Below are positions 6,849-60,639 of a DNA stretch of 64,000 bases, piece after piece; positions within the stretch are counted from its first letter, which is position 1; each line of letters opens with the position of its first letter. The notes under the pieces are model-generated. The model saw nothing but the letters and a program-made list of their open reading frames with translations, was not told the DNA's origin and did not search any database. Origin of the DNA: Planctomycetia bacterium. Its GTDB lineage: Bacteria; Planctomycetota; Planctomycetia; Pirellulales; UBA1268. Location of the stretch: NCBI GenBank assembly GCA_014192425.1, contig BJHK01000001.1:2623-66622 (forward strand), in the 5' to 3' direction. The position numbers and the translations under genes are program-made.

Positions 6849-7002
6849 CCTGCCGGCTGCATCGACCATGGCACCCTCGTCCTTCCTACTGGGAAACCGC
6901 AGACGGAGGGGGACGGTAACCAAAATCTGGGGCAGGGAACACCCCGCACTCGAGCGCTGGCGGCTGCCCCGGGCCCCGGCGTGTGGAGGGGCCGGGCGGC
7001 CA

Positions 7003-8784
7003 TCAGGGCTCCAGTCGGCGGAACGCCCGAAGCCCGAGCCGGAGCGGAACGAACGTCGCCAGCAGGCCGAGCAGGCCCACCATGGCGGCGGCGGCCGCCC
7101 AGCCCCACGGCCCCCCCGCCCAGCCGACCAGTCCCGAAGCCGCCCGGCCGGAGAAGGAGGAGAACAGGCTGGCGAGCAGGGCGAAGTGGGTTGGTACGGC
7201 CGCCACGATGACGACCACCATGATGAACAATGAACTGACGACGAGGCACAGCGTGCCCCCGAACCCGGAGGCGATCTTGGCGGCGGACAGCTCGCGGAAG
7301 TCGGGCATCCGGGCCCCGAGGCCGACGGCGATTCCCGACAGGCCGAGGCAGAGCACCACGCAGGTGAACAACTGCAGCACCGTCGCCGCCGCGGGAATGC
7401 CGAGCATCGCGTTGCTGAGCAACACCAGCCCGCAGCAGGGAAGCAGGCTGCCGCCGAAGGAGAAGAGGAATTTCGACCACACGATCTGGTCGCGGTGCAC
7501 CGGCAGCAGGCCGAGGATCCAGAACCGCCGACCCTCGAGGCTGATCATCGGGTAGACGAACCGGGTGGTGAAGGTGGAGAGGATCAGGCCGACGACGGCG
7601 AGGTTGAGAAAGCCGATCATCGATGCGTAGGCGTTGTGGTAGTGGAACGAGCGGAGGTTGAGGAAGTACAGGCCGAGAAGGCCGAAGAAAATCAGGAACT
7701 GCGACCACTGGGCAATGTCGCGGCGAAACAGCCGCAGGTCCTTGACGAGCAGCAGCCGGAGCGGCCGCGTGCGGGCCGAGCCCGCCCAGACCAGGGCCTC
7801 GTCGAGCCACGACACCCGCCGGCGCCGGCGGCGCGGCGCCTCGGCTGCCAGCCCGCTGAAGCCGCGCCGATAGACGAGCCCCGCAAGCCGGCCGGCGAGC
7901 ATGTGGAGGAACAGGGCGTTGGCGACGAGGAGCGAAAGGAACCAGGCCGCCTCACGCAACGCGGCGGCCGCGCGCAGGCCGCCGCGCGAACCCGCAGCGG
8001 CCTCGAGCAGGCCCGAGGCCAGCCACCAACTGGGGAGCAGTTTCTGCTCGGAGAACGCCAGCCGCGAGAAGGTCTGCTCGAACCAGGCGTTGGGCAGGGA
8101 CGTCGCGGCGTCGGCGACATTGCCGCTGGAGATCGACCAGCCTAGCCAGAGCACGGCCGCGCAGCAGGCGACGAGGGCCGCCGTCAGGGCATGGACGCGG
8201 AGCCGCGGCAGCCATGCAACCAGCGCCATGCAGGCGATGCCGCCGACCGCCGTCGGGATGGCGACGAAGGAGAGCATGAACACCGGCAGCATGGCGTAAT
8301 ACGGCCAGCCCGCCCCCTGTTCCATGCCGAAGGCGACGAGCAGCGGGCTGCCGAGGAGCAGGAAACCCCAGCCGGCGAACCACAGCGCCTCCTGCGCCTT
8401 GTGGGCGAAGAGGGCCTCGGCACGGATCGGCAGCGTCATCAGGAGCCTGGCCTCCGTCGAGCAGTACAACCCGCTGTACAGGAGGATCCCGGAGGAGAAG
8501 ACGAGCATCAGCGTCAGCGAGAGGAAGAAGGCGTTGAACAGCAGCGACACGACGTCGGCGTGCAGTTCGCGGAGGAAGCGGAAGCCCTCCAGCGAGAGGA
8601 CGAAGATCGCCCCCCAGAAGATGCAGCTCAACACCGCGGCCAGGCTCATCCGCAGCCGGGCGACACCGAACAGCGAGCGCAGCGTCTCCCAGGCGAGGGT
8701 CGCCCGGAGCCGGAGCAGGAGCCGGGCCTCGGCCTCGGTGGAGAGCAGGCGGACGAAGCCCCCGGCTGGAACGCTCCCCTTCAT
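7003..8784 (-). CDS. large polytopic membrane protein, putative ABC exporter permease (two 6-TM-like halves)
   Basis: 593 aa, many hydrophobic segments, an Arg-rich linker (APRRRRRRVSW) mid-protein. Lies 37 nt downstream of an ABC ATPase gene. Confidence 0.75.
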   Translation of the reverse strand: MKGSVPAGGFVRLLSTEAEARLLLRLRATLAWETLRSLFGVARLRMSLAAVLSCIFWGAIFVLSLEGFRFLRELHADVVSLLFNAFFLSLTLMLVFSSGILLYSGLYCSTEARLLMTLPIRAEALFAHKAQEALWFAGWGFLLLGSPLLVAFGMEQGAGWPYYAMLPVFMLSFVAIPTAVGGIACMALVAWLPRLRVHALTAALVACCAAVLWLGWSISSGNVADAATSLPNAWFEQTFSRLAFSEQKLLPSWWLASGLLEAAAGSRGGLRAAAALREAAWFLSLLVANALFLHMLAGRLAGLVYRRGFSGLAAEAPRRRRRRVSWLDEALVWAGSARTRPLRLLLVKDLRLFRRDIAQWSQFLIFFGLLGLYFLNLRSFHYHNAYASMIGFLNLAVVGLILSTFTTRFVYPMISLEGRRFWILGLLPVHRDQIVWSKFLFSFGGSLLPCCGLVLLSNAMLGIPAAATVLQLFTCVVLCLGLSGIAVGLGARMPDFRELSAAKIASGFGGTLCLVVSSLFIMVVVIVAAVPTHFALLASLFSSFSGRAASGLVGWAGGPWGWAAAAAMVGLLGLLATFVPLRLGLRAFRRLEP

Positions 8785-8821
8785 GCCGCAGCCCGCCCTG
8801 GGAATCCGGGCGCGAGTGCTG

Positions 8822-9580
8822 TCACGGGAGCAGCCCCCCGTGCCCCTCCGGGCCGGTGCGGTCCGCCGTCAGTTGCAGGTACAGCTGCTCGAGGTTCATG
8901 CTCTCCACCGCCACCTGGGCCCGCAGTTCGGGGATCGTGCCGAGGAACCGCAGCCGGCCGTGGACCATGATGCAGACCCGGTCGGCGAGTTCCTCCGCCA
9001 TGGCGAGCGTGTGCGTCGACATGAACACCGTCATGCCCTCGGCGACCCGCTCGCGGAGCAGGTCCTTGACGATCCGCACGCTCCGCGGGTCGAGGCCCAC
9101 CATCGGCTCGTCGAGGACCAGGACCTGGGGGTCGTGGAGCAGCGAGGCGGCGAACACGAGCCGTTGCTTCATGCCGAGCGAGTAGCTCTCGGCGAGGTCG
9201 TCGATGAACTCGCCGAGCTCGAAGTGGCCGATCTCCCGGTCGATTGCCCGGCGGGACGCGGTCCGCGGCATGCCGAACATGTCGGCGATGAAGCAGAGGA
9301 ACTCCCGGCCGGTGAGTTTGTCGTACAGGCAGGGCTCGTCGGGCACGTAGCCGAGCTGCAGGTGGGCGGCCCGCGGGTCGCGGACCGTGTCGTGGCCGCA
9401 GACGCGGATCGCCCCCGCCGAGGGCCGCAGCAGGCCGACGAGCATGCGGATGGTGGTCGTCTTGCCGGCACCGTTCGGCCCAAGGAGCGCGAACAACTCC
9501 CCGCGCGGGATCGACAGCGACAGGTCAGCCACGGCGGTCCGCGTGGCGTACATCCGGCTGACGTGATCGAACTCGATCAT
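8822..9580 (-). CDS. ABC transporter ATP-binding protein
   Basis: ATG at 9580 (MIEFDHVSRMY). Walker A GPNGAGKTT, signature YSLGMKQRL, Walker B VLVLDEP. ATGA overlap with the upstream gene at 9577-9580. Confidence 0.9.
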   Translation of the reverse strand: MIEFDHVSRMYATRTAVADLSLSIPRGELFALLGPNGAGKTTTIRMLVGLLRPSAGAIRVCGHDTVRDPRAAHLQLGYVPDEPCLYDKLTGREFLCFIADMFGMPRTASRRAIDREIGHFELGEFIDDLAESYSLGMKQRLVFAASLLHDPQVLVLDEPMVGLDPRSVRIVKDLLRERVAEGMTVFMSTHTLAMAEELADRVCIMVHGRLRFLGTIPELRAQVAVESMNLEQLYLQLTADRTGPEGHGGLLP

Positions 9581-10548
9581 GGCGCGGCAGGCTCCGGGGC
9601 GGACGATGCAGCGTCGCCAATCGAACCGCGGCCGGGGCCCGCGACCAGGTTCGCCGCGACGTCGGCGGCGAGTTCGGCCGCCGCCTCGTCGTTGCGCCGC
9701 TCGAAGACGAGCCGGGCCGCGAGGATGGACGCCTCTTGGCGAAGCACGCGGCCGGACCTGTCGACCCAGATTCGAAACCGTTGGCTGCCGCGGTTCGTGG
9801 GATCGGGCCGGTAGACGACGACGTGGGTCCAGGTCAGCTGGCCGTCCCAGTAGATCTGCTCCTCGCCGTCGACCTCGGCATGCAGGACTTCGACCGTGGA
9901 GCCGTTGCTGCGCAGCGGACTGAAGATCGACACCTGCCAGCGTCTTCCCGGGAACAGGCCGAGCAGCACCGCCCGGGGGGACAACTCGTCGCCGCTGACG
10001 GCATGCCATGGCACCTGCTGGCGGGTCTCGTAACGCAGTTCGCCCGCCCGGAGGCTGACGGATAGCGTGTCGTCCACCATCGCCCCGGTGAACAGGATCG
10101 GTGCTGCGACGCCCGGAAGATCGACCGCGGCGTCGAATGTCCGCAGCCGGCCGCCGGCATCGAAGCGAAAGCGGCTCTTCGACTCGACGACCATTCCCTG
10201 CCCGCGGATCGCGTGCCCAGGCGGTCGGAGGACGGTGGCCAGCACCTCCGCCGTCCACTTGGGAAGCATGTCGTCGATCGGCACACGGTCGAGGTGGAGC
10301 CAGCTGTCGACAGCGATCTGTCCGTCGTCGAGGCGACGGGATTCGGACAGCGCCCAGCCGAGTGGCATGTCCTTCCAAAGCACCGACCAGGCGACGGGGA
10401 CGGGTGGTTGACCGGCGGCAAGGGAATGGCCGTAGCCCGGCGGTGAGCCGTTCGACAACGAAGGAGCGATCTTCTCCACGAACAGCCAGCCGGTGGCCAG
10501 GCACCAGAGCGCCGCGACGACTACCGAAACCCAAGGCCGCTGCAACAT
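9577..10548 (-). CDS. N-terminally membrane-anchored protein of unknown function
   Basis: 323 aa, a single N-terminal hydrophobic helix (VSVVVAALWCLATGWLFV), then a beta-rich-looking domain. First gene of the ABC operon. No motif recognised. Confidence 0.65.
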   Translation of the reverse strand: MLQRPWVSVVVAALWCLATGWLFVEKIAPSLSNGSPPGYGHSLAAGQPPVPVAWSVLWKDMPLGWALSESRRLDDGQIAVDSWLHLDRVPIDDMLPKWTAEVLATVLRPPGHAIRGQGMVVESKSRFRFDAGGRLRTFDAAVDLPGVAAPILFTGAMVDDTLSVSLRAGELRYETRQQVPWHAVSGDELSPRAVLLGLFPGRRWQVSIFSPLRSNGSTVEVLHAEVDGEEQIYWDGQLTWTHVVVYRPDPTNRGSQRFRIWVDRSGRVLRQEASILAARLVFERRNDEAAAELAADVAANLVAGPGRGSIGDAASSAPEPAAP

Positions 10549-10781
10549 GCCGCCCGTTCCCCGGGGCGGTTCCGGCCCGACAGCAGCGGCGCCGGAACCC
10601 GAGATGGAATCGCTCTACTATAGCGACCTACTGCCAAAAGACCGGATGCAACCGGTCAATCCGCGGAATTCATCGAAACCGAACACGCCTGCCATTGCCC
10701 GCCGGCTCGGGCCGCCATACACTGCCGCCGAGGGGTTCGGTCTTGCGGTCGTGTTCAGCGCCGGCAGACCGGCAAGCGGAC

Positions 10782-11057
10782 ATGTCGAGCCATGAGTGTC
10801 GAGCCACAAGTCACGGCAAGAGTCACGCCATGAGTCACGACCGATCCACGGTGCATTTCCATCAGTCCTGTCCCGTCTGCGGCAGGCAGTTGCGGGTGCG
10901 CGTCAGCCTGCTCGGACAGCGTGTCTTCTGCCAGCATTGCGGCGGTGGATTCGTGGCCGCCGATCCCGAACTTCGCGGCGAGCCGGCCGATCGCGACGAT
11001 CAGGTCGAACGGCTGCTGGCGGCCGCGGCCCGGATGCTCGAGCGGGCGGATCGCTGA
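10782..11057 (+). CDS. small zinc-ribbon protein
   Basis: CPVCGRQLRV...FCQHCGGGF provides two CxxC pairs. Alternative ATG at 10830. The track ORF from 10101 is over-extended. Confidence 0.5.
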   Translation: MSSHECRATSHGKSHAMSHDRSTVHFHQSCPVCGRQLRVRVSLLGQRVFCQHCGGGFVAADPELRGEPADRDDQVERLLAAAARMLERADR

Positions 11058-11100
11058 TCGGCTGATCGATGCCCTCGTTGGCCACCCGGCTGCAGCCGCG

Positions 11101-12426
11101 TCAGGCCGGCGCCGGGCAGCGTCCGGACGTGAGGTCGGCGAGCATTCGCCAGTATCCCGGGAACGTCTTGCCGACGCAGTCCGGGTTTTCGATGACCACT
11201 CCCGGCGTGCGCAGGCCGGCCAGCGCCAGGCTCATCGCCATCCGATGATCGTCGTAGGTGGCGATGCTCGCGCCGTGCAGGGGGCCGGGGTGGATGGTGA
11301 GGCCGTCCGGCCGTTCGTCGACACGGCAGCCGAGCCGGCGCAGCTCACGGACCAGGTCGCCGATCCGGTCGGTCTCCTTGTCGCGGATGTGGGCCACGTT
11401 GTTGATCGCCGTGGGCGTCGTGGCGAACAGGGCCACCGCCGCCAGCGTCGGCACGGTGTCGCTGATGGCGTTCATGTCGATGTCGATGCCGCGGTCGGCC
11501 CGGCCCGCGACCGTGACCGCCCCGTGCGGCGTCGTGGGGCCGGGCTCCTCCCAGGTCACGGAGCAGCCCATCCGTTCGAGCGCGTCGGCAAAGCCGATGT
11601 CTCCTTGCATGCTCGTCCGCGACAGGCCCTCGATGCGGACGCGGCCCCCCGTGATCGCCGCGGCCGCGAGAAAATAGCTGGCCGCCGAGGCGTCGGGCTC
11701 GATCGCGTAGTCGCAGGCCGTGTAGCCGGTGGCGGGAATGACCCATGTGTGCGGGGTCGGCGATTGGCAGCTGCCGCCGAACGACTCCATCACGCGCCGG
11801 GTCATCTCCAGGTAGGGAAGCGACACGAGTCGGCCGGTGAACTCGAGCGTCGTCTCGGCATTCGCACAGGGGGCAGCAAGGGCCAGGCCGCTGGCGAACT
11901 GGCTCGATGTCGTGCCGCGGACGGCGATCCTGCCCCCCGGCAGTCCGCGGGAACGGATCACGACCGGCGGGCAGCCGCCGGGGCTCTCCGCCAGCGCGTC
12001 GATGCCGAGGCTGCGGAGCGGTTCGAGCAGATCGTCAATCGGCCGCTGCCGCATCCGGGGCGTGCCGTCGAGACGGTAGGTGCCGGTGCCGAGGCTCGAG
12101 ACGGCCGACAGAAACCGCATCGTCGTGCCGCTGGCGGCGCAGTCGATCGTGGCGGTCGTGGCCGGGATCGCACCGCCGGCGCCGCCGACGTCGACGATGC
12201 CGGCCTCCCAGTCGGCCGTCACCTCGATGCCGAGCGCGGCGAGGCCGGCAACCATGACCCGCGTGTCCTGGCTGTCGAGGACGCCCTCGAGCCTGCTCCG
12301 GCCGCGGGCCAGCGCGGCGCAGACCAGCGCCCGGTTGGTGATGCTCTTGGAGCCGGGTGGGCGGACGGTGCCGCGCACCGGCGCCATGCAGCAGGGAATC
12401 GGCAGGGCGGGCGTGGCGGTGTCCAT
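11101..12426 (-). CDS. aroA: 3-phosphoshikimate 1-carboxyvinyltransferase (EPSP synthase)
   Basis: PPGSKSITNRAL, DCAASGTTMRFL, RMRQRPI, IRDKETDRI and DDHRMAMS motifs. Start taken at MDTATP (12426); the track ORF extends further upstream. Confidence 0.9.
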   Translation of the reverse strand: MDTATPALPIPCCMAPVRGTVRPPGSKSITNRALVCAALARGRSRLEGVLDSQDTRVMVAGLAALGIEVTADWEAGIVDVGGAGGAIPATTATIDCAASGTTMRFLSAVSSLGTGTYRLDGTPRMRQRPIDDLLEPLRSLGIDALAESPGGCPPVVIRSRGLPGGRIAVRGTTSSQFASGLALAAPCANAETTLEFTGRLVSLPYLEMTRRVMESFGGSCQSPTPHTWVIPATGYTACDYAIEPDASAASYFLAAAAITGGRVRIEGLSRTSMQGDIGFADALERMGCSVTWEEPGPTTPHGAVTVAGRADRGIDIDMNAISDTVPTLAAVALFATTPTAINNVAHIRDKETDRIGDLVRELRRLGCRVDERPDGLTIHPGPLHGASIATYDDHRMAMSLALAGLRTPGVVIENPDCVGKTFPGYWRMLADLTSGRCPAPA

Positions 12427-13823: not shown

Positions 13824-15296
13824 TCAGCGGCGCTGCGACGGTCCACTGCGTGGCAGCGGTCCGCGCAGCAGCGGGTCTTCGAGCAGCGTCATGACCAGGG
13901 ACACGTTCTCTCCACCCCGCTGCGCCGACTGCCAGGCGTTGCGGGCGGCGGCCGGATCGGGCTCGGGACGGGTGAGATACCGGGCGCCGATGAACAGGTA
14001 ATTGGCCGCGTGCCCGGCGCCGGCGAACCACTGCTTCGTGATCGTCATCGCGATCGCCTCCGGAACCTCGTCGATGGGGAGGCGGATGTTTTCCCCCTTG
14101 TGCCGGAAGATGAACATTCGATCGTTCACCTCGACGATGGAGATGCGATCCTTGCCGACGTCGAAGTCGCTGCCCATACCGGCCTTCAGCGCCTTGCCGC
14201 GAAAGGAAGCGAATTGCCGGGCATGAGCGGTGAGTTGCTCCCAGGCGGCGACGCGATCGCCGTCGGGGCCGTCGCCGACGGCATCCCGCGCCCGGGCCAG
14301 CCAGTCGTCGGCGCTGGCGAAGTCTTCGGCCGCGAGGGCCACCCGGGCGCCGGCGAGGAACTCGTCGAGCCGGGCGGCGTCGGTCGCGGCAGGCCGCGGC
14401 GACCGCGGGCGAGGCGCCGGTGAATCCGGCTCCGGCTCCGGTACGACGGCGGGTAGCGGCGGATTTGCCGGTTGGGAGGGCGGGCGCGGCACCGTGACGG
14501 ATATTGGTTCGGGGGTGGGCGGGCTGGTCGGCTCGGGGGGCGTTTCGCCCGATGGGCCCCGCGCCGAGACGGGCGGCTGCTCTTCCACCATCCGTGGCCG
14601 GTTCTGCGGCGTGCCGAGCGGCAGGCGCGGCGCGGCGCCGGGCGCCGGCTTTGCCGCAGGTGTGGCGGGCGGGGCGATGGCTTCGCCGATCTGCTCCGCC
14701 TGGTCGCGGGCCAGCGCGATCAGCCGATCGCGGTGTGACAGAAGCTGGCCGCGAAAGGCGATGCCGGCGGCGGCCGCGGCAGCCAGCGTCACCAGCGTGA
14801 GCAGCCACGGCGAGCGCCGAGTCCTCGCGGTCCGCGGCCCGCCGCCAGCAGACGCCAGTTCGGCGGCCGCAGGCACGAGGGGTTGCTCGACCGACCGCGC
14901 GGCGGCCGCGGGCGGCGGAACGGGTGGCGGCGGCGGCGTCCGATCGGGTGCCGCTGCCGGCGGGCGTCGGGCGGCCGGCGCGGCAGGGCTGGCGGGCCGC
15001 GCCAGGGCGCCGGGAGGAGGAGGGGGCGAGAAGCTGCTTCCCGGACGCGCCGGCAACGATGCGAGCAGCCCGTCACGGCTCTCCTCGACCCGCTTCACGA
15101 GCGCCGTGCGTGCCACCGTGAACGGACCTGGATCCAGGCCGCGAAGCCGGGCCAGCCGCTCGTCGGCGGCTTTGATGATGGTCTCGCTGTCGAGTTGTCC
15201 GGAGGAGAGACCGAGCACCAGCCGCGGATCGGCGAGATCAACGGCGTCAAGTCCCAGCCATTCACGGCTCGGGTCGAATGTGCTCGCGGATGACAT
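13824..15296 (-). CDS. hypothetical protein with degenerate J-like N-terminus, Pro-rich linker, one TM helix and an unknown C-terminal domain
   Basis: 490 aa. N-terminus REWLGLD...LVLGL...IIKAADERLARLR resembles the WLGI/J-like openings common in planctomycete proteins. Hydrophobic segment WLLTLVTLAAAAAAGIAF. Confidence 0.65.
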   Translation of the reverse strand: MSSASTFDPSREWLGLDAVDLADPRLVLGLSSGQLDSETIIKAADERLARLRGLDPGPFTVARTALVKRVEESRDGLLASLPARPGSSFSPPPPPGALARPASPAAPAARRPPAAAPDRTPPPPPVPPPAAAARSVEQPLVPAAAELASAGGGPRTARTRRSPWLLTLVTLAAAAAAGIAFRGQLLSHRDRLIALARDQAEQIGEAIAPPATPAAKPAPGAAPRLPLGTPQNRPRMVEEQPPVSARGPSGETPPEPTSPPTPEPISVTVPRPPSQPANPPLPAVVPEPEPDSPAPRPRSPRPAATDAARLDEFLAGARVALAAEDFASADDWLARARDAVGDGPDGDRVAAWEQLTAHARQFASFRGKALKAGMGSDFDVGKDRISIVEVNDRMFIFRHKGENIRLPIDEVPEAIAMTITKQWFAGAGHAANYLFIGARYLTRPEPDPAAARNAWQSAQRGGENVSLVMTLLEDPLLRGPLPRSGPSQRR

Positions 15297-15386: not shown

Positions 15387-17600
15387 TCAGCCCGGCCGGC
15401 GCCGCCAGACCGTCATCTCGGCCAGCGAATGCTGGTGCTTGCGGGCGGTTTCCCGGATGACGAACGGAACGTCCTGGCGGTGCTCCAGCGCAAAGCGGCC
15501 GTGGAGAATCCGCTCGATCCCGGTGAGCGTGTCGAGCGGCTCGCCATGCTCGCGCCGGCCGCCGAGCCACTTGTCGCGGGGGGTGTATTCCTCGAGCCAC
15601 GTGTAGGGGCTCGTGAGCACGAGCAGGCCGCCGGGCACGATCCGGTCGCCGATGAGGTCGAGGAACAGCCGCGGGTCGTAGAGCCGGTCGATGAGGTTGC
15701 CGGCGAAGACGAGGTCGTAGCCGGTGTAGAGCGGCTTGAGGTTGCAGGCGTCCCCCTGCATGAAGGCGACGCGGCCGGCGACGCCGGTCAGCCCGAGCCG
15801 ATCGAGCGACACCGCGTGGGACGCCGTCAATTCCCCCTCCGTGGGCACCTCGTAGAGGACCTCGTCCCCCTGCTGCAGGCGAACGCCCGACTGGATGAAC
15901 CGGGCGGAAAAGTCGAGGGCATCGACGTGAGAGAAATGGCGGGCGAACTCGAACGCCGACCGGCCCACCGAGCAGCCGATGTCGAGGCAGCGCCGGCGGT
16001 TGCCGGCGGGGACGTGCGGGAGCACCGCCTCGACGCAGGCCTGGGGGAAGTTGGGCACGCCGAGCGCCGCGGGCGACCCGTAGTGAAAGTCGAGGTATTG
16101 CGTGACGAGCTGGTCGGTCTCGTAGAGCCGCGCGCCGGCCGTCGTCGCCTCGTTTCCCGGCTCCTCGACGATCGTGCGCAGGCCGGCATGCTGGAAGAAG
16201 TGCCGCCGAAAGGCATAGCGGGCGCTGGCCAGCGCCTCGTTGCCGGTCGAGATCCACGAGCCGCCCATGATGAGGTTATGGCGGCCGTCGAACGTCGGCA
16301 CCGAGAAGTCGTCGTACAACGGATGAATCTCGAAGCCCTTGAAGGGCATGATCGGCGTCCGCGTCCACTGCCAGACGTTCCCGACCACGTCGCAGAACTC
16401 TCCCTGCGGAAAGGCGTCGACCGGGCTGCTCGAGGCGTGGTGGGCCAGGTTGATGTTGCCGGGAGCCGGATCCCAGGTCGGCTGGTCGCCCGGCACGTGC
16501 CGGCGCAGGGCGTGCCAGTGAGCTTCTGTGGGGAGGAGGACGTTCTCTCCGGTCATTCCCCCGAGCCAGCGACAGTAGGCCTGGGCCTCCAGGCAGTTGA
16601 CCTCGACGGGCCAGTCGAGCGGCAGGGGGATCTCCTCGAGCAGGTTTCGCTGCACGCAGCCCGCCGCCGTCATGCGCCAGAACTTCGGATGCTCGGCCTT
16701 CGTGTACCGCAGCCAGCCCTGCCCCTCCTCGGTCCACAGCGACTCATCGCGATAGCCGCCGGCGACGACGAACTCGTGAAACTCGGCGTTCGACACGAGC
16801 TGCCGGGCGGCGCGGAAGGCGGGCAGGTCCACCTCCTCGACGCCGTACTCGTTGTCCCAGCCGTAGGTCTGGTCGTCGGCCCGCTTGCCGAGCCGCACGG
16901 TCTGGGCGGGCACCGGCAGCCAGGGGTTCGGAGGCGCGGGGCCGGTCGCCTGACACGATGCCCAGAGCCGGCGCTCCGCCGCGGTCAACTCCGCCCCGTG
17001 CCGCAGTTCGCCGAGCGGCATGAGCCGCATGATCACCGACGATGTCTCGAGGTGGATCCGCTCGTGCTCGATCCCCATGAGGATCAGCCAGGCGGGCGAG
17101 TTCCACGTGATCGGCAGCTCCAGCGGCATCGATTCGATGAAGCCGTCGACCAGCTCGCGGACCGCGGCCCGGTAGTCGCGGACCGCCTGCACGGAGGGCC
17201 AGTCGTAATGGGCCGTGTTGAGGTCGTCCCACGACATCTCGTCCACGCCGACGGCGAGCATCGCCTCCAGCTTGGGGTCGATGCGACGCGGAATGTGGCG
17301 GCCGGCAGTCAGCTTGTTGACGTAGAAGACGGCAGGATGGCCGTAGTAGAAGATCAGCGGATGCCGGAGCGGCTCGTGCCGCTTGAAGTAGGAGGCATCG
17401 TCGCGGATCAGGTCGAAGAGTTGTTCGTAGAGGCTGCACGTCTGGTGAAAATAGCGGCGGAGTTCGGCCCGCTTGGCGGCGACGGGATCGGCCGCGGCGG
17501 GGTCGGCCGTGAGCAGGGGCGTGCGGGTCGGCGCGAGCGGGGCTTCGAAGTCGGCGAACCGGCCGCGGGCCGGCGGGGCGGTCTGGAGGGCGGGGGCCAT
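15387..17600 (-). CDS. ovoA: 5-histidylcysteine sulfoxide synthase / methyltransferase OvoA (ovothiol biosynthesis)
   Basis: 737 aa, three-domain layout. DinB-like N-terminus with HERIHLE (HxxxHxE iron motif), an FGE-sulfatase-type middle domain, and a C-terminal SAM methyltransferase (CLDIGCSVGRSAFE). Confidence 0.9.
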   Translation of the reverse strand: MAPALQTAPPARGRFADFEAPLAPTRTPLLTADPAAADPVAAKRAELRRYFHQTCSLYEQLFDLIRDDASYFKRHEPLRHPLIFYYGHPAVFYVNKLTAGRHIPRRIDPKLEAMLAVGVDEMSWDDLNTAHYDWPSVQAVRDYRAAVRELVDGFIESMPLELPITWNSPAWLILMGIEHERIHLETSSVIMRLMPLGELRHGAELTAAERRLWASCQATGPAPPNPWLPVPAQTVRLGKRADDQTYGWDNEYGVEEVDLPAFRAARQLVSNAEFHEFVVAGGYRDESLWTEEGQGWLRYTKAEHPKFWRMTAAGCVQRNLLEEIPLPLDWPVEVNCLEAQAYCRWLGGMTGENVLLPTEAHWHALRRHVPGDQPTWDPAPGNINLAHHASSSPVDAFPQGEFCDVVGNVWQWTRTPIMPFKGFEIHPLYDDFSVPTFDGRHNLIMGGSWISTGNEALASARYAFRRHFFQHAGLRTIVEEPGNEATTAGARLYETDQLVTQYLDFHYGSPAALGVPNFPQACVEAVLPHVPAGNRRRCLDIGCSVGRSAFEFARHFSHVDALDFSARFIQSGVRLQQGDEVLYEVPTEGELTASHAVSLDRLGLTGVAGRVAFMQGDACNLKPLYTGYDLVFAGNLIDRLYDPRLFLDLIGDRIVPGGLLVLTSPYTWLEEYTPRDKWLGGRREHGEPLDTLTGIERILHGRFALEHRQDVPFVIRETARKHQHSLAEMTVWRRRPG

Positions 17601-17614
17601 GCGCGAATCCGGGG

Positions 17615-18718
17615 CTATGGGACGGGTGTCAGTTCGTCAACGATAGCACGGCTGGCGAGTCCCTCCAGCAGCCGGTCCGGCACGGGGGAAACGGCCGCCA
17701 GCAGCGATCCGACGACCGCCGCACGGTGGCAGTTGTCGCCGCCGCACAGGGCGTTGGCCCGGATGCCCGCCGCGAAGTCGCCCGCATGCCGGGCGGCCAG
17801 ATACAAGGCCGCCGGGAAGGCATCGTCGATGTAGCAGGCGGGGCTGAGCACGGTCCCGACGACGGCCCTGTCGGGGCATGTGGCCGGGCCGCGGCCGGCG
17901 CGGCGGTCCCAGTCGGCGAGTTTCGCGGCGGACGCCCAGTCGCCGGCCTCTTCGATGATCGTCTCGCGCAGGTCGCGAGGCCCGTCCGGTCGATCGGGCC
18001 GGGTGAGGCGGACGAGGATCCGGGCGAGGGCGTCGGCGGCGGCGAGGACGTCGTCGTCCCGATGGGTGAGCGAGACGTGCAGCCGCACGATCCGGCGGAT
18101 GTCGGGATGCCGGGGCCCAAGGCCGGCGACGATCGCCGGCACGGTGGCGAGGCCGCCGATGTGGACGTCGCGGACGCCGCAACTGATCGGCTTGCGGCCG
18201 CTGCCGAGGTTCGTGAAGAAGTGCCGATGGTATTCCTCGACGTAGGTGTCGCGATGCCGGCCCGGCTCGGTCATGAAGGCCACGTACCGCTCCAGCCAGC
18301 GTTCCGGGTCGTACTCCCGGTCGCGGCGCAAGAGGGCGAACAGTTCCACCGCGAGCCGGTAATTGAGCGTGTTGTCGCCGGCGGCGAGGAACTGGTGGTA
18401 GTGGATGCCGCGCCGTCCCCAGTACTGCGCCTGCTCGCGCAGGATGTCCGCCTCTGGCGTCGGTGGCGTGTAGCTCGATCGCCAGAGGATGCTGTCTGGA
18501 TGTGGCGACCGCGGCGCGAGGTAGGTGGGCGGGACCGCCGGGTCGGCGAGATGCGAATAGTCGCGGTCGAGCGCCGCGGTGTCGTAGTACCAATGGACGG
18601 GCATGGCGACGGCGTCGGCGACGAGGCTGCCGAGGAACGCCTGCAGGCTCGTGTCGGCGCGGTGATCCGCCGGCTGGGAGGGTGCGGACTCGGGTGCGGA
18701 CGTCGAATGGTTCGTCAT
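17615..18718 (-). CDS. ADP-ribosylglycohydrolase-family protein (divergent)
   Basis: 367 aa. The N-terminal LGSLVADAVAMPVHWYY, the mid GDNTLN and the C-terminal CGGDNCHRAAVVGSLLAA align by eye with the ARH-fold metal motifs. Its stop lies 14 nt upstream of the ovoA start, and it has an ATGA overlap with the ABC ATPase. Confidence 0.75.
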   Translation of the reverse strand: MTNHSTSAPESAPSQPADHRADTSLQAFLGSLVADAVAMPVHWYYDTAALDRDYSHLADPAVPPTYLAPRSPHPDSILWRSSYTPPTPEADILREQAQYWGRRGIHYHQFLAAGDNTLNYRLAVELFALLRRDREYDPERWLERYVAFMTEPGRHRDTYVEEYHRHFFTNLGSGRKPISCGVRDVHIGGLATVPAIVAGLGPRHPDIRRIVRLHVSLTHRDDDVLAAADALARILVRLTRPDRPDGPRDLRETIIEEAGDWASAAKLADWDRRAGRGPATCPDRAVVGTVLSPACYIDDAFPAALYLAARHAGDFAAGIRANALCGGDNCHRAAVVGSLLAAVSPVPDRLLEGLASRAIVDELTPVP

Positions 18719-19461
18719 GACAGCGGCTCCCGGCGCAGGAAGGCCCGGACGCGCGGCGCGGCGGGGCGGTCGAAAAAGTCGTCGCTCGGAGCGTGGGCGA
18801 GGACGCGGCCGTCGGCGATGAACGCCACTTCGTCGGCGGCCCGGCGGGCAAAGTCCATCTCGTGGGTCACGAGCACGAATTGCGTGCCGCCCTCCCGCAG
18901 TTCGCCGATCATCGCCAGCACCTCGGTCGCCATCTCCGGATCGAGTGCCGACGTCGGCTCGTCGAGAAACAGCCGCTGCGGGCGGACGACCAGTGCCCGC
19001 AGGATCGCGATCCGCTGCCGCTGCCCGCCGGAGAGTTCGGCCGGCCGCTTGCCGGCGTGTTCCTCGAGCCCGAACCGGCGCAGCGGTTCCCGCACCCGCT
19101 CGGCGGCGGCGGCAGGCGACAGCCCGTGCACTCGGACCAGGGGAAGCAGAAGATTGTCCATGGCGGTGAGATGCGGAAACAGGTTGAATGCTTGAAAAAC
19201 CGTGCCCACGGTGCGCCGATAACCGCCCAGCCCCCGCTCGTCGCGGGGCAGCGGCACGCCGTCGAAGGAAACGCCCCCCGCCACGGGCACGTCGAGCCCG
19301 GCGAGAATCCGCAGGAGCGTCGACTTTCCGCCACCCGAGGGGCCGACGAGGACAAGCGTGCGGATCGGGCCGGTCTCGAGGTCGAGCCGGTCGAGCACGG
19401 TGGCCTGGCCGCCGTCGGGCCGGGGGAACCGCTGCACGAGGCCGTGGATGGAGAGTCGCAT
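18715..19461 (-). CDS. polar amino-acid ABC transporter ATP-binding protein (GlnQ/HisP type)
   Basis: GPSGGGKSTLLR, VFQAFNLFPHLT, LSGGQRQRIAILRAL, LFLDEPTSALDPE. Confidence 0.9.
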   Translation of the reverse strand: MRLSIHGLVQRFPRPDGGQATVLDRLDLETGPIRTLVLVGPSGGGKSTLLRILAGLDVPVAGGVSFDGVPLPRDERGLGGYRRTVGTVFQAFNLFPHLTAMDNLLLPLVRVHGLSPAAAAERVREPLRRFGLEEHAGKRPAELSGGQRQRIAILRALVVRPQRLFLDEPTSALDPEMATEVLAMIGELREGGTQFVLVTHEMDFARRAADEVAFIADGRVLAHAPSDDFFDRPAAPRVRAFLRREPLS

Positions 19462-19476
19462 GGGGGGTGGCGCGGC

Positions 19477-20214
19477 TCAGGCGACCTCGTAGCGCAGGCG
19501 ACGTTCCAGCCAGCGCGAGACCGCGGCCAGCGGGAGCGTGAGGATCAGATAGCCGACGGCCAGCGGCAGGTAGGTCTCCAGCGTCGCGTAGGTGAAGGAG
19601 TTGACCTCCTGGGCGGCGAGCGTGAACTCGGCGATCGAGAGCACGGAGAGTAGCGACGAGTCCTTGACGAGCGAGACGAACTGGCCGGCAACGGCCGGCA
19701 GCACGATCCGCACCGCCTGCGGGAGGACGACGAACCGCTGGATCTGCCAGGGCGAGAGGCCGATCGCCCGGCCGCTGTCGATCTGGGTCCGCGGAATGGC
19801 ATCGATGCCGGCGCGGAAGATCTCAGCCATGTAGGCACCGCTGAACAGCGAGAGCAGGAGAACGCCGGCGACGTAGCGGTTGTGGAGGCCGATGGCCGTG
19901 CCGACGAAGTAGAAGCCGAGGAGCAGTTGGACGAGCAGCGGCGTGCCGCGGATCAATTCGACGTACACCCGGGCCGCGGCCGCGGGGAGCGGGCGTCCGG
20001 AGCGGAGCAGGGCGGCGGCGAGGCTGCCGACGAGCGTGCTGACGACGAGCGCGGCGAGGCTCAACGCCACCGTCATCAGCCAGCCGTGAAAAAGTTTCTC
20101 CCGGTACTCCCACACCCCCGACCAGTTCCAGGCGACGTCGACCCGGGCTGCCGCCAGGGCGACGGCGCCGCCAAGCGCTGCGACGACGATCGTGAAGGCG
20201 AGCCAGCGGGGCAT
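19477..20214 (-). CDS. polar amino-acid ABC transporter permease (HisM/GlnP type)
   Basis: ATG at 20214 (MPRWLAF). YVELIRGTPLLVQL and EAA-loop-like DSGRAIGLSPWQ motifs. The track ORF to 21870 is an over-extension. Confidence 0.9.
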   Translation of the reverse strand: MPRWLAFTIVVAALGGAVALAAARVDVAWNWSGVWEYREKLFHGWLMTVALSLAALVVSTLVGSLAAALLRSGRPLPAAAARVYVELIRGTPLLVQLLLGFYFVGTAIGLHNRYVAGVLLLSLFSGAYMAEIFRAGIDAIPRTQIDSGRAIGLSPWQIQRFVVLPQAVRIVLPAVAGQFVSLVKDSSLLSVLSIAEFTLAAQEVNSFTYATLETYLPLAVGYLILTLPLAAVSRWLERRLRYEVA

Positions 20215-20331
20215 GCGGCGAGGATACCATGTTGGAGAGTCGCCACGGTGGCCGCACGGCGTTTGGCCCGCTGTCTTCGGCAGACGAACACTTTGCGTCC
20301 GATCCTCGTTCCCGCCCGGCGCGTGACTGCC

Positions 20332-21474
20332 ATGAGTTCCACCCCCGTCCGCTGGCTCGCCGAGCAGCTTCCCGCCTGGGAACGTGAGGGGATCGTCACC
20401 GCGGACGGGGCACGGGTGCTCCGCGAGCGATACGCGGCCGAGCCCCGCGGCGGCCTGGCGCAAATGATCGTGGCCGCGATCGGCGCGCTGCTCATCGGCA
20501 CCGGGCTGATCGCGGTGCTGGCCTACAACTGGGACGACTTCCCGCGCTGGGTGCGGCTGTCGCTGGCGCTCGGGCCGCTCGCGGCGTCGCAGGCCGCGAG
20601 CTGGTGGGTGCTGCAGCGCGGCGCGGCCGCCACACGGTGGCAGCGCGAGGCGGTCGCGCTTCTGCAGGCGCTGGCCGTCGGGGCTGCGATGGCGCTCGTG
20701 TCCCAGATCTACAACCTGCCGGGGCAGTGGACCGACCTCGTCTTCTGGTGGTGCGTGGTCGCCGTGCCGCTGGCCTGGGTGCTGGAATCCGACGCCGTGG
20801 CGATCGCCTACCTGCTGGGCATCGCGACCTGGACCATCGCGCAGGCTCGGCCCTTCACCGGCGAGGGGGCCGACTGCCGCATCTGGTATCCGCTCCTCCT
20901 CGCCGGCATCCTGCCCCGCTGGCCGGGCGCCGACCTCCGCGGCCGGCCCCAGCCGGGCAGTCGGGCGGTTCTCGCCCTGTCCGCCCTGGCCGGCCTGATC
21001 GCCGTGGCGGCGGACTCCCGTCAAAGGTTGAACTCCGATCATGCGTCGGTCTGGCTCACGATGCTGACGGCTGCCGCCGTGCTCCTCTTTCCACTCGACC
21101 GGCGGGGGATCGCCGAACCGCTCTCCCGCAAGCCGCAGGTCCTGCTCGGCGGGATCGTGCTCGTCACGCTGGCGCTGGTCGCCAGTTTCGAGGATCCGGC
21201 CCGGGGTCTCCTCGAGGGCGTCGCGCGGGCGATGCCGCTCGGCTGGTGCTGGCTGCTGCTGACGGTCGTGGCGGCCTTCGCGGCCCTGGCCCTGTGGCAG
21301 GGCCGGTACGCCGTGGTGGCGGTCGCGGCACTTGCGGTCGTGCCGCTGCTCGCCGATGCCGATGGCCTGTCGCGGATCGAGTCGCTGTCGCTGGAGCTCG
21401 TGTCGGGCCCGACCGTGATTCGCCTCGTGGCCGGGCAGGGCTGGCGGGAAGACGATGCCGTGACCATCGAGTGA
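20332..21474 (+). CDS. DUF2157-like polytopic membrane protein
   Basis: N-terminus WLAEQLPAWEREGIVTADGARVLRERY followed by many TM helices. It ends at a TGA that is followed in frame by a GDYXXLXY-like tail (next feature). Confidence 0.75.
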   Translation: MSSTPVRWLAEQLPAWEREGIVTADGARVLRERYAAEPRGGLAQMIVAAIGALLIGTGLIAVLAYNWDDFPRWVRLSLALGPLAASQAASWWVLQRGAAATRWQREAVALLQALAVGAAMALVSQIYNLPGQWTDLVFWWCVVAVPLAWVLESDAVAIAYLLGIATWTIAQARPFTGEGADCRIWYPLLLAGILPRWPGADLRGRPQPGSRAVLALSALAGLIAVAADSRQRLNSDHASVWLTMLTAAAVLLFPLDRRGIAEPLSRKPQVLLGGIVLVTLALVASFEDPARGLLEGVARAMPLGWCWLLLTVVAAFAALALWQGRYAVVAVAALAVVPLLADADGLSRIESLSLELVSGPTVIRLVAGQGWREDDAVTIE

Positions 21475-21660
21475 CCATTCGACCGCTTCTACCTCAACGA
21501 GCGGCTCGCCCCCGACGCCGACAGGCTCGTCGCGGAGCGATTCCAGGAGGGAAACAAACCGGTCGCCGAGTGCCGTCTTCTCGACGGCCGTGCCGTGCTC
21601 ACCGACATCCTCGTGGACGGCACGTCGATCCGCGAGGTCGTCCGGCAGCAAAACCGCTGA
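21475..21660 (+). pseudogene. 62-codon in-frame continuation resembling the C-terminal part of a GDYXXLXY-family domain
   Basis: No start codon of its own. Translation PFDRFYLNERLAPDADRLVAERFQEGNKPVAECRLLDGRAVLTDILVDG resembles the FF-x-EG...G-x-x-L tail of GDYXXLXY proteins, which normally accompany DUF2157 genes. Confidence 0.35.
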
Positions 21661-21707
21661 GCCGGCCACGGCCGGAGCTGCCGCCGCAGCGGGGCCGGCC
21701 GCCCGCC

Positions 21708-22481
21708 TCAGAAGAAGAACGGGATCGCGCGATCCTTGAAGTAGGCCTTCTCCGCGGCGAGGAACTCGTCGCCGAGCCGCTCGAAGCCGCCAGCGGCACG
21801 GAACGTCCCCAGGAACTCGTTCACCCGGCGCCTGAGGTTGTCGTCGCCGGGCCGCAGCCCCACCGCCCACGTCTCCTCCCGGAAGGGCGCGAGCAGGGCC
21901 CGCGTCTGCTCGGGGTGCCGCTTGTGATGCTGGTAGACCGAGAGCGGATCGTAGATGAAGGCGTCGGCCTTCCCCTGCACGACCTCAAGGGCCGCCGCCG
22001 ACTCCTTGTCGAGCACGAGCAGGCGGGCCTTCTTGAGGCCCGTCGCGGCGTACTGGTGGCCGGTCGTCCCCTTCTTGACAGCGATCACCCGGCCGGGGGC
22101 GTCGAGGTCGGCAGCGGATTGCAGCGGCGACTTCGCCGCCACGAGGAGCGCCAGCCCGGTCTTGAGATACGGCTCCGAGAAGGCGATCGTCTTCGCCCGC
22201 TCGGGCGTGGCCGTGAGCGACGAGATGATGCAGTCGATCTTGCCCGTCCGCAGCGCGGGGATGAGCCCGTCAAAGGGAATGTTTTCGATGACGAGCTCGC
22301 GGCCGAGGTGCCGCGCCAGTTCCTCCGCCAGCCGGACGCTCACGCCCGTCGGCCGCCCCTGCTTGTCCGTCATCTCGAAGGGCGGATAGGAGAGCTCCAT
22401 GCCGACGCGGAGCGGCGGCTCGGCCGCCGACACGATGGCTGACAAGGCGCAGGTGAGGAACCAGGGAACGAACCGGTGCAT
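21708..22481 (-). CDS. polar amino-acid ABC transporter substrate-binding protein
   Basis: ATG at 22481. Signal peptide MHRFVPWFLTCALSAIVSA. LRVGMELSYPPFE, GKIDCIISSLT and FSEPY motifs of family-3 binding proteins. Confidence 0.85.
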   Translation of the reverse strand: MHRFVPWFLTCALSAIVSAAEPPLRVGMELSYPPFEMTDKQGRPTGVSVRLAEELARHLGRELVIENIPFDGLIPALRTGKIDCIISSLTATPERAKTIAFSEPYLKTGLALLVAAKSPLQSAADLDAPGRVIAVKKGTTGHQYAATGLKKARLLVLDKESAAALEVVQGKADAFIYDPLSVYQHHKRHPEQTRALLAPFREETWAVGLRPGDDNLRRRVNEFLGTFRAAGGFERLGDEFLAAEKAYFKDRAIPFFF

Positions 22482-22519: not shown

Positions 22520-23689
22520 TCAGGCCGCCGGCCGGGCCGCGAGCGCCGTCTCGGGCAGCGGCTCGACCGGATCGAGACGCCCGCCGGGGCCGATGGCGTA
22601 CGTCCGGCCACGCCAGGTTACCGTGCGCACGGCGAACGAGGCGAACCAGCCGACGAAGTAGACCGCATCCTTGAGGAGGATCGCGGCGACGTGCCGCGGG
22701 GCGAGGGCCTGGGCCCGCAGCAGCCGGGCAGCCGAGACCTCGAGGAGGATTTTCAGCGCCGCGACCGCAGGCACGCAGAGGGCGTAGTCGGTGGCGAGGA
22801 GCGGGAGCGTCCAGGGGACGGGGTTGAGGACGAGCTCCAGGGGGTAGGCCCACGGGCAGATGCGGCGGCGCAGCCCGGAGTGGCGCAGGTGCCGCTGCAC
22901 GAGGCCGCACCACGACCAGGCGCGGTGCACGATCCGCACCGGCACCGGGGCGAGCCGCAGCTTCCCGCCGGCCTCGGCCACCAGCCGCGAGAGGACGAAG
23001 TCGTCGGCGCCGTGGTCGCGGACGTCGGCGAAGCCGCCGGCGTCGTCGAGGGCCCGGCGGCGGACCCACTGTCCCTTGGCGTTCACGGCGTGCTGTCCCG
23101 CGACGATCGCGGCGCCGATCGAGAGCAGACCGGCGAACTCGGTGTAGTGCAGGTTCTCGATCGCCGCCGGCAGCGTGCACTCGCCGATGCCGACCACCGG
23201 CTGGTAGACCATCCCCACCCGCGGGTCGGCGAAGCAGGGGAGCACGCGACCGATCTCGTCGGCGGCGACGCGGACATTGCTATCGGAGAGGAGGATCAAG
23301 TCGTGCCGGGCGTGCGGCAGCAGCGACTCGAGAAGCCCGACCTTCGGGCTGGCGGCGTCGCTGTCACCGCCGAGCACGATCGCCACGTCGCGATTCGGAT
23401 ACCGGCGGGCGAGCCTGCGGACGACATCCAGCGCCGGATCGCCGGCATCGGCCGCGCCGAACACGAGCTGCAACGGTTCGTGTGCGAGCAGGAAGAAAGA
23501 CCGGAGGTTGGCCTCGAGGTCCTCGTCGAAGCCGCACAGCGGCTTGAGGATCGTGACGCCTGTGAGGTCGGCGGCAGGTGTGCGGCGCGATCCGGCGCGG
23601 CTCCAGCGGACCGTCACGAGCCACGCGGTGGCGTAGAGGCCGAGGCCCGTGGCGGCGACGGCAAGCAGGCAGGCGGTCAGGGCGGTCAT
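22520..23689 (-). CDS. glycosyltransferase, ceramide-glucosyltransferase-like (GT21/GT2 type)
   Basis: N-terminal TM helix, VTILKPLCGFDEDLEANL opening typical of the family, LLSDSNV acidic motif, C-terminal TM segments. Confidence 0.7.
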   Translation of the reverse strand: MTALTACLLAVAATGLGLYATAWLVTVRWSRAGSRRTPAADLTGVTILKPLCGFDEDLEANLRSFFLLAHEPLQLVFGAADAGDPALDVVRRLARRYPNRDVAIVLGGDSDAASPKVGLLESLLPHARHDLILLSDSNVRVAADEIGRVLPCFADPRVGMVYQPVVGIGECTLPAAIENLHYTEFAGLLSIGAAIVAGQHAVNAKGQWVRRRALDDAGGFADVRDHGADDFVLSRLVAEAGGKLRLAPVPVRIVHRAWSWCGLVQRHLRHSGLRRRICPWAYPLELVLNPVPWTLPLLATDYALCVPAVAALKILLEVSAARLLRAQALAPRHVAAILLKDAVYFVGWFASFAVRTVTWRGRTYAIGPGGRLDPVEPLPETALAARPAA

Positions 23690-47694: not shown

Positions 47695-47783
47695 CGGCGG
47701 ACGCGGCGGGGAAGCGATTCGGGGGGCGCTGGACCGCCCGACTATACACCAGGCACGCGGCCGATTCCCGGACGCCTTTCGCT

Positions 47784-60524: not shown

Positions 60525-60639
60525 CGGGCTGCCTCAGGATTCGGAGGGCGAATTGGCGGGGCGCGTTGTCGGCCCGGCGGACGACCGTCATTATGGCCTC
60601 CCGTCCCACACGATCCGATACCGGCCCCGGAGACCGACC

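Follow-up and report, generated by a model that had tools for sequence, protein, structure and literature searches.

What does a gene for a protein of the ADP-ribosylglycohydrolase (ARH) fold do between an amino-acid importer and ovoA, the gene for the ovothiol synthase OvoA? The question is raised by a locus of the freshwater planctomycete Planctomycetia bacterium LBMAG47 (Pirellulales; assembly GCA_014192425.1), which lies within the 64,000 nucleotides of contig BJHK01000001.1 that we analysed (contig positions 2,623 to 66,622, forward strand; hereafter the window, from whose first letter positions are counted). There, the genes for a permease and an ATPase of the ATP-binding cassette (ABC) type are followed on the minus strand by the ARH-like gene and by ovoA, which is the last of the four. 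We found that this gene order is conserved in Pirellulales, and that the subfamily of the ARH-like protein is linked to ovothiol or another defence against singlet oxygen in three settings, two of them bacterial clades, where the link is one of gene order, and the third an alga, where it is regulatory. The explanation that we favour, although we would put its chances no higher than even, is that the locus represents an operon which Pirellulales have conserved as a protection against photo-oxidative stress of the singlet-oxygen type. In this operon the ARH-like protein would act alongside or downstream of the antioxidant, and not as a replacement for OvoB, the lyase of the ovothiol pathway.

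Conservation of the gene order around ovoA

Gene coordinates were taken from a list of open reading frames (ORFs) and, independently of it, from a public gene call for a Logan contig of this organism. The two sources agreed, and all the coordinates and gene identities given in a preliminary description of the locus were found to be correct. The first gene codes for a permease of the polar-amino-acid type (19477-20214, minus strand; 245 residues; PF00528 and TIGR01726), the second for the ATPase (18715-19461, minus strand; 248 residues; PF00005), the third for the ARH-like protein (17615-18718, minus strand; 367 residues; PF03747) and the last, ovoA (15387-17600, minus strand), for a protein of 737 residues. 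The ARH-like protein belongs to an uncharacterised ARH-fold subfamily and is 100% identical to 'hypothetical protein LBMAG47_00210' of Planctomycetia bacterium LBMAG47. The junction between the ATPase and ARH genes reads '...ctg tca tga cga', and the stop codon of the first overlaps the start codon of the second (ATGA). The junction between the ARH gene and ovoA reads 'tag ccccggattcgcgc atg', a gap of 14 nt. Both the overlap and the gap, which had been noted before, are visible in the junction sequences, and the permease, ATPase, ARH and ovoA genes are tightly coupled, as had also been described.

By its domain architecture, OvoA of the window is a full-length bifunctional enzyme, a 5-histidylcysteine sulfoxide synthase with a C-terminal 5-thiohistidine N-methyltransferase, and its family membership predicts a role in the ovothiol pathway. 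The synthase domain (residues 40-477) scored 614.5 bits against TIGR04344, above the curated cut-off of 400, and the methyltransferase domain (residues 493-734) scored 300.8 bits against TIGR04345, above the curated cut-off of 170. In Pfam, the protein matched the DinB_2, FGE-sulfatase and methyltransferase domains; the Pfam/HMM check that had been proposed thus bore out the OvoA domain set as well as the ARH fold of the neighbouring protein (PF03747, and a structure model described below). Residues 45-734 matched the solved full-length OvoA 8KHQ at E=2.8e-243, as against 1e-91 for EgtB-IV and 1e-19 for OvsA, and the related SenA (166 bits) and EgtB (154 bits) models were both under their cut-offs. 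The C-terminal domain also matched the OvsM/OvoM structures 9bxh and 9bxl. The bifunctional architecture is the same as that of 8KHQ and of the Erwinia tasmaniensis ovothiol A pathway (OvoA and OvoB). In contrast to that pathway, however, ovoA here stands last in an operon whose other genes code for a polar-amino-acid ABC importer and an ARH-fold protein, an arrangement that no paper found in our literature search mentions.

To place the locus among its relatives, we used the ARH-subfamily protein in a search that returned more than 3,600 proteins at E≤1e-5, the best 120 of which were all at least 65% identical, and in a scan of one genome per species, in which more than 572 genomes carried the signature peptides of the subfamily. 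The best 80 loci of that scan are from metagenome-assembled genomes (MAGs) of Planctomycetota, mostly labelled Pirellulales or Planctomycetaceae and most of them from lake water, and the window proteins were compared with these loci by tblastn. Of the 74 species-level loci with at least 400 bp of sequence beyond the ARH gene, 67 have ovoA as the next gene downstream, so the adjacency is not unique to the LBMAG47 genome. The ATPase gene immediately precedes the ARH gene in 73 of 76. Where both genes were present, identity to the window proteins was 61-79% for ARH and 62-86% for OvoA.

A co-location argument of the same kind and scale has been made before. The accessory enzyme 5-thiohistidine N-acetyltransferase (5THNAT) was recognised because its gene keeps its place with ovoA in more than 50 genomes (PMC12631010). 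It is a GNAT acetyltransferase of Bacteroidota, reported in 2025 from a study of OvoA neighbourhoods that also pointed out that few thiohistidine-using enzymes are known. Its activity on 5-thiohistidine has been demonstrated, and in this, as in its fold, it differs from the ARH-fold protein of the window. A survey of bacterial OvoA and OvoB mentions neither Planctomycetes nor gene neighbourhoods, and our literature search found no paper linking ARH-family proteins with ovothiol, ergothioneine, thiohistidine or sulfoxide synthases. The new element is the ARH-fold subfamily and its recurrent association, OvoA and the importer being ordinary.

Conservation of this kind could also result from descent. 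If the ARH gene stood between the importer and ovoA in the ancestor of the order, inherited synteny would have kept it there without any functional link, which we consider an unlikely account of the whole pattern. It would agree with the finding that all the ovoA-linked loci are Pirellulales-type MAGs, with the frequent conservation of flanking genes (a 490-residue gene downstream of ovoA, and the Fe-ADH and EPSP synthase genes in locus L071), and with the absence of an ovoA link elsewhere in the subfamily. The overlapping stop and start codons and the 14-nt gap, however, argue against it, and the core order holds while the neighbourhood rearranges. The order survives a DUF2157 insertion in LBMAG47, an inverted binding-protein gene in L032 and the insertion of an MFS transporter gene between the ARH gene and ovoA in L007 (2106-3722 of that locus). 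Moreover, a second bacterial clade shows an association of the subfamily with singlet-oxygen defences that is independent of the first, and the Chlamydomonas member is induced together with OVOA1 (PMC4067076).

Three of the exceptional loci are informative. In L071, a Pirellulales MAG, genes for the binding protein, permease, ATPase and ARH are followed by one for a standalone OvoM-type methyltransferase of 263 residues (7554-11824 for the whole set), which passes the model of the OvoA C-terminal domain (TIGR04345, 273 bits). There is no gene for a sulfoxide synthase within 10 kb, and the wider synteny is that of the relatives, Fe-ADH and EPSP synthase coming next. In L072 (912-4704), the usual operon is replaced by the ARH gene together with genes for a DASS transporter of the Na/sulfate type and for a methyltransferase that is generic and not OvoC-like, and in L053 the ARH gene is alone. 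L071 and L072, together with the position of the importer directly upstream of ARH in 73 of 76 genomes, would be consistent with salvage, that is, with uptake by the importer of an external thiohistidine-type conjugate or precursor, release of the compound by the ARH hydrolase and completion by the OvoA methyltransferase. We nevertheless find this quite improbable. The exceptional loci that suggest it number one or two and may be decaying operons, the L072 methyltransferase is of the wrong kind, the binding protein of the window resembles an ordinary alpha-amino-acid binder, and the sister-clade and algal members of the subfamily have no linked importer.

Fold and active site of the ARH-like protein

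The ARH-like protein matched PF03747 at E=9.9e-36 and no NCBIfam model. A search of the PDB with the single sequence gave a best E of 0.012, and a profile search was used for the alignments. An AlphaFold model built with 58 sequences (pLDDT 91.9, pTM 0.91) was compared with the PDB by Foldseek, which returned only ARH-fold proteins (probability 1.0, TM about 0.6, 13-22% identity), among them Listeria Lmo0067, MJ1187, a Thermus ARH-related protein, DraG, Tri1-type immunity proteins and ARH3.

In the profile-to-PDB alignment, the segment 'ADAVAMPVHW' aligned to the canonical 'GDALG(A/M)(T/P)(V/T)E', and His42 (of 'AMPVHW') was placed opposite the catalytic, metal-binding Glu of 'MPTE' in MJ1187 and 'ATVEF' in DraG. 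His42 was invariant across the subfamily alignments. The segment 'GGDNCHR' aligned to 'GGD(T/A)D(S/T)' of MJ1187, DraG and TTHA; this C-terminal motif, GGD328-N-C-H-R, keeps the first Asp only, and there is a Glu at that position in algae. The segment that corresponds to (S/T)DD(T/S), before the fourth helix, reads G-(D/E)-N-T-L-N and can be aligned in two registers, neither of which gives an Asp-Asp. The remarks made earlier on the motifs (ADAVAMPVHW for GDALG, and GGDNCHRA for GGDTD) are thus correct, and the protein is a divergent, non-canonical member that has kept the ARH fold and lost the catalytic signature. It shares the all-helical fold and PF03747 with the canonical ADP-ribosylhydrolases (DraG, ARH1/ARH3, MJ1187, Lmo0067 and the Thermus protein), but is only 13-22% identical to them, has His42 for Glu, GGDNCHR for GGD(T/A)D(T/S) and no DD pair in either register, and is encoded in a context of antioxidant biosynthesis.

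From Planctomycetes to green algae, about 20 polar positions vary little or not at all. Among them are D35, H42, H73, H106, H108, N116, T117, D157, E161, H164, R165, H186, H219, C295, N322, N329 and R332, and the signature motifs of the subfamily are DAxAMPVHWYY, HYHQ, G(D/E)NTLN, DTYxExxHRxFF and GG(D/E)N(C)HRG. The conservation of so many polar residues suggests an active enzyme with a defined substrate and not a pseudo-enzyme, and the substitution of the catalytic Glu and of most of the acidic di-metal ligands by His, Asn and Cys suggests that this enzyme is not a standard Mg/Mn ADP-ribosylhydrolase. To judge from its sequence, then, the ARH-like protein is most likely an active hydrolase that works on something other than ADP-ribosyl-protein.

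The same substitutions bear on a regulatory role of the DraG kind, in which the protein would free OvoA, or another protein, of ADP-ribose and so switch the pathway on under stress. Such a role would be in keeping with PF03747, with the ARH fold and with the best structural matches, which include DraG and ADP-ribosyltransferase (ART)-ARH toxin/immunity pairs. The catalytic Glu, however, is a His, GGDxD(T/S) reads GGDNCHR and the DD is missing in either register. In addition, no partner ADP-ribosyltransferase was seen among the annotated neighbour genes, and the protein has no PADLOC match. With the catalytic residues lost and no transferase in sight, this is the least likely of the alternatives, and we attach hardly any weight to it. 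A reading of the locus as a defence system was likewise dropped, as the PADLOC models failed on both the ARH protein and the 490-residue protein encoded downstream of ovoA.

The longer proteins of the subfamily were considered as possible Rosetta-stone fusions, but OvoA-like domains were found in none of them. P0123 and P0147 (about 780 residues) are ARH-ARH tandems, and eight others have a single ARH domain and extra, mostly N-terminal, sequence with no Pfam match. Genes for S-adenosylmethionine (SAM)-dependent methylases recur near the subfamily in several contexts. That many ARH neighbours are of this kind led us to the speculation that the ARH protein might clear S-adenosylhomocysteine.

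Relatives in other bacteria and in green algae, and the question of OvoB

An exhaustive search among representatives of clusters formed at 50% identity gave 1,165 clusters at E≤1e-3. Relatives that are full-length and 30-48% identical are among them, and these share the subfamily motifs. The named members of a sister bacterial clade are from MAGs of Desulfobacterales, Desulfatiglandales and Geobacteraceae/Desulfuromonadaceae. We assessed the gene context of this clade from five exact-protein look-ups and from 80 metagenome loci whose ARH proteins are 38-52% identical to that of the window. One of the five genes, from a Desulfobacterales MAG, was in an uninformative context, and in the remaining four cases the ARH gene was found among photolyase or photolyase-related (DPRP) genes. 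A trio of amino-oxidase-like, DUF1365 and CFA-synthase-like genes flanks the ARH gene in L083 and L088 and lies about 5 kb from it in L085; the look-up loci also carry DUF1499, DUF2177, DUF4174, DUF1295 and lipocalin genes. We then counted a set of stress genes that includes amino-oxidase/DUF1365/CMAS, DUF1499, DUF4174, DUF2177, DUF1295 and DPRP/photolyase. At least one of them was present in 27 of the 80 sister-clade loci, and in 14 of the 30 loci of 7 kb or more, and they stood beside ARH in none of the 80 Pirellulales loci. No true ovoA neighbour was detected in the 80 sister-clade loci. A match to OvoA upstream of ARH in L097 (8905-9843) turned out to be a Trm112-fused methyltransferase, with 80 bits against the TIGR04345 cut-off of 170.

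The trio has a counterpart in Rhodobacter sphaeroides. The furan fatty acid of this organism scavenges singlet oxygen, and the operon responsible for it is in the sigmaE/ChrR singlet-oxygen regulon. The RSP1091-1089 genes have the same Pfam make-up and order as the sister-clade trio (FAD amino-oxidase/desaturase-like, DUF1365 and CFA-synthase-like; PMC7380195). UfaD and UfaO (DUF1365), encoded in the RSP1091-1087 operon, make the furan fatty acid, whose level rises upon deletion of chrR (PMC7380195), and sigmaE is the factor cited as responsible for the R. sphaeroides singlet-oxygen response (PMC4067076). Unlike in the sister clade, no genes of the furan-fatty-acid operon are found near ARH in the window or in the 80 Pirellulales loci.

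One representative of the subfamily is from the green alga Pycnococcus. A search with the Pycnococcus protein found homologues in Chlamydomonas, Volvox, Gonium, Dunaliella, Chlorella, Ulva and others, and the 90% cluster of the C. schloesseri protein contains CHLRE_01g016150v5. The Chlamydomonas protein, Cre01.g016150 (P0538), is 35% identical to the window ARH over 356 residues (E=4e-63), with the signature motifs kept. Cre01.g016150 is tabulated as 'ADP-ribosylglycohydrolase' among the Chlamydomonas genes whose induction by singlet oxygen depends on SAK1, with a log2 fold change of 2.65 in the wild type and 0.17 in sak1; Cre08.g380000, CFA1, CFA2 and a DUF1365 gene are in the same table (PMC4067076). 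Cre08.g380000 is OVOA1, which is regulated by SAK1, and both the resistance and the acclimation of Chlamydomonas to singlet oxygen require ovothiol A (bioRxiv 10.64898/2026.02.12.702910). We did not find Cre01.g016150 in those supplements of the preprint that we searched. Thus, the algal gene codes for a protein of the same subfamily as the window ARH and shares the SAK1 table with OVOA1, but by their gene ids the two are on different chromosomes, and the link is one of regulation and not of gene order. The ARH-like subunit of the Ycf2-FtsHi complex is a different protein from Cre01.g016150. We conclude that the subfamily travels with singlet-oxygen defences in three independent settings: with ovoA in Pirellulales, with furan-fatty-acid-type and photolyase-related genes in the sister clade, and in the SAK1 regulon of Chlamydomonas.

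The preliminary description had stated that the window has no gene for OvoB, the pyridoxal 5'-phosphate (PLP)-dependent lyase of the pathway. The statement is supported: no OvoB-type PLP enzyme was found among ten aminotransferase-sized ORFs of high coding potential in the window, in a scan that did not take in every ORF, and no gene within 10 kb of ARH and ovoA is annotated as a PLP enzyme in the public gene call. Published work describes OvoB as a beta-lyase of broad specificity that has, in bacteria, a gene of its own (PMC12631010, PMC8433421), and an unlinked OvoB is therefore unremarkable. For the E. tasmaniensis pathway, likewise, the lyase is not expected beside ovoA.

It could still be that the ARH-fold protein is itself a non-PLP replacement for OvoB, which in Pirellulales, and perhaps in algae as well, would make 5-thiohistidine from 5-histidylcysteine sulfoxide. 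The tight coupling of ARH to ovoA in 67 of 74 genomes and the lack of a PLP enzyme among the ten candidate ORFs would be accounted for, and so might the active site, which from its sequence appears remodelled and rich in His and Cys. In addition, OvoB-like proteins are missing from animals other than hydrozoans (PMC8433421), and alternative lyases must therefore exist somewhere. The relatives argue otherwise, however. In the sister clade, proteins at 38-52% identity with the same invariant residues are encoded beside ovoA in 0 of 80 loci, the algal member is unlinked to OVOA1, and L071 retains ARH although the locus is without the sulfoxide synthase domain. Nor is beta-elimination known from any ARH-fold enzyme. 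Finally, OvoB is normally unlinked and of broad specificity (PMC12631010). Nothing in these comparisons points to the ARH protein as a stand-in for the lyase, and since relatives that share the invariant residues manage without ovoA beside them, the protein more likely acts in parallel with the antioxidant or downstream of it. The protein is probably not an OvoB substitute, and replacement of the lyase seems to us very unlikely.

Under the favoured explanation, that of a Pirellulales operon for photo-oxidative stress defence, OvoA would, as expected from its family, join histidine and cysteine with O2 to form 5-histidylcysteine sulfoxide and later N-methylate 5-thiohistidine to ovothiol A. The C-S cleavage in between would be carried out by an unlinked, broad-specificity PLP beta-lyase encoded elsewhere in the genome. 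The importer would bring in an amino-acid precursor or a related compound, and the ARH-fold protein would serve as a non-canonical hydrolase in the same stress response, acting for example on a product or adduct formed under stress. The lake habitat of most of the related loci, in which sunlight drives the formation of singlet oxygen, also counts in favour of this explanation.

Several points weigh against it. We infer the co-transcription of the ATPase gene, ARH and ovoA solely from the 14-nt gap and the overlapping codons. The predicted catalysis by the ARH-like protein is based on sequence and on a model, the invariant residues are presumed to come together in a single site, and the register of the second metal motif is ambiguous. 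All 80 ovoA-linked loci are from one order, and the conserved gene order may in part be inherited synteny, the gene downstream of ovoA being often conserved as well. The association seen in the sister clade is partial, covering about a third to a half of the loci, and was measured with query proteins from that clade itself. The algal link consists of one transcriptome table and 35% identity, and the substrate-specific models for the importer all fall under their cut-offs.

A bolder version, which we think rather unlikely, would make the subfamily a cross-kingdom core enzyme of the singlet-oxygen response, whose His-rich site performs a thiohistidine chemistry new to the fold, either PLP-independent cleavage of the histidylcysteine sulfoxide, a lyase step for which most eukaryotes have no assigned enzyme, or repair of ovothiol oxidised by singlet oxygen. 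Whatever its reaction, the operon gives a concrete candidate enzyme that is conserved beside ovoA in at least 67 species, and whose homologue in the genetically tractable Chlamydomonas responds to singlet oxygen through SAK1, as OVOA1 does. It also defines a large uncharacterised branch of the ARH fold, in which the loss of the canonical catalytic residues together with strong conservation points to a new substrate. Furthermore, it suggests that ovothiol helps to protect planctomycetes abundant in lakes against the oxidants that sunlight generates.

The importer, intergenic regions and neighbouring genes

By its architecture (a family-3 binding protein, a HEQRo permease and an ATPase), the importer is of the polar-amino-acid ABC type. 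Its parts match SBP_bac_3, BPD_transp_1 and ABC_tran, and thus the same three-component families, with the HEQRo 3-TM domain in the permease, as GlnHPQ, TcyJLN/cystine, HisJQMP, ArtPIQMJ and EhuABCD. The permease scored 73.8 bits against TIGR01726 (HEQRo 3-TM domain; cut-off 42.2). The best NCBIfam matches of the ATPase were GlnQ, EhuA, ArtP and TcyN, all under their cut-offs, and all the substrate-specific models were far under theirs (score/cut-off of 112/303 bits for GlnH, 110/312 for cystine and 75/459 for HisJ). The window importer therefore differs from those of the GlnHPQ type in that it falls under the cut-off of every substrate model, and also in that an insertion has split off its binding-protein gene. 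This gene (21708-22481, minus strand) codes for a periplasmic family-3 solute-binding protein of 257 residues with an apparent signal peptide (PF00497, E=3e-34). Its nearest solved proteins are AncCDT-1, Thermotoga ArgBP and AncQR, that is, binders of Arg, Gln or cationic amino acids and reconstructed ancestors. With no specific model passing and with such neighbours among the solved binders, the proposal of a His/Gln/Cys-type importer was not borne out.

The binding-protein gene is directly upstream of the permease gene in most relatives. In the window, a DUF2157 membrane-protein gene on the plus strand (20332-21474; PF09925, E=7e-34) lies between the two, with a homologue in 0 of the 80 related loci. 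From this distribution, the DUF2157 gene is a lineage-specific insertion that splits an ancestral operon, and it is probably not part of the system. The binding-protein gene had been described as separated from the others by the DUF2157 gene only. The separation is as described, but since the intervening gene is on the plus strand, the binding-protein gene cannot belong to the permease-ATPase-ARH-ovoA transcript in LBMAG47. A family-21 glycosyltransferase gene (ceramide glucosyltransferase-like; 22520-23689, minus strand) ends 38 nt before the binding-protein gene. A gene of the same family is also upstream of the binding-protein gene in several relatives, e.g. L010, L013, L052 and L059, and because of this shared arrangement the two may be co-transcribed here.

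The permease and DUF2157 genes diverge from an intergenic region of 117 nt (20215-20331), which, we infer, must contain the promoter for the permease, ATPase, ARH and ovoA genes in the LBMAG47 genome. A scan of 13.5-23.9 kb for sigma-70 promoters and intrinsic terminators gave nothing beyond the expectation from shuffled sequence. A search of 13-24.5 kb against Rfam (E≤1) gave two chance-level matches only and thus no riboswitch, and no inverted repeats were found in three intergenic regions. The 8-mers enriched upstream of the binding-protein genes of 38 relatives were GC-rich words and 'GCAGGGTA', present in 8 of the 38, and were unconvincing.

Downstream of ovoA, and 90 nt after it, is a gene without assigned function (13824-15296, minus strand) for a proline-rich protein of 490 residues with one predicted membrane helix. 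About 45 of the 80 related loci have a homologue 3' of ovoA. Conservation is best over roughly the first 90 residues, at around 50-60% identity, and the protein has no Pfam or PADLOC match. Possibly, this gene is a further member of the ovoA unit.

Elsewhere in the window, the G+C content is 0.62-0.65 between 30001 and 38000, as against 0.70-0.75 in the remainder, and this stretch, which may be acquired DNA, carries genes for a BPD_transp_2 permease (33387-34454) and a double ABC ATPase (34451-36010). The AT skew is unusually high in the stretches 6001-10000 (0.31 at 6-8 kb and 0.17 at 8-10 kb) and 46001-48000 (0.20 at 46-48 kb), which coincide with long minus-strand genes. At 3599-6006 (minus strand), an amidohydrolase gene adjoins a radical SAM gene of the CofH/MqnC type, and the pair looks like part of the futalosine route of menaquinone synthesis. 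Lastly, a gene for methenyl-tetrahydromethanopterin cyclohydrolase (MCH) is found at 60553-61626 (plus strand); MCH genes are typical of planctomycete C1-transfer gene sets.

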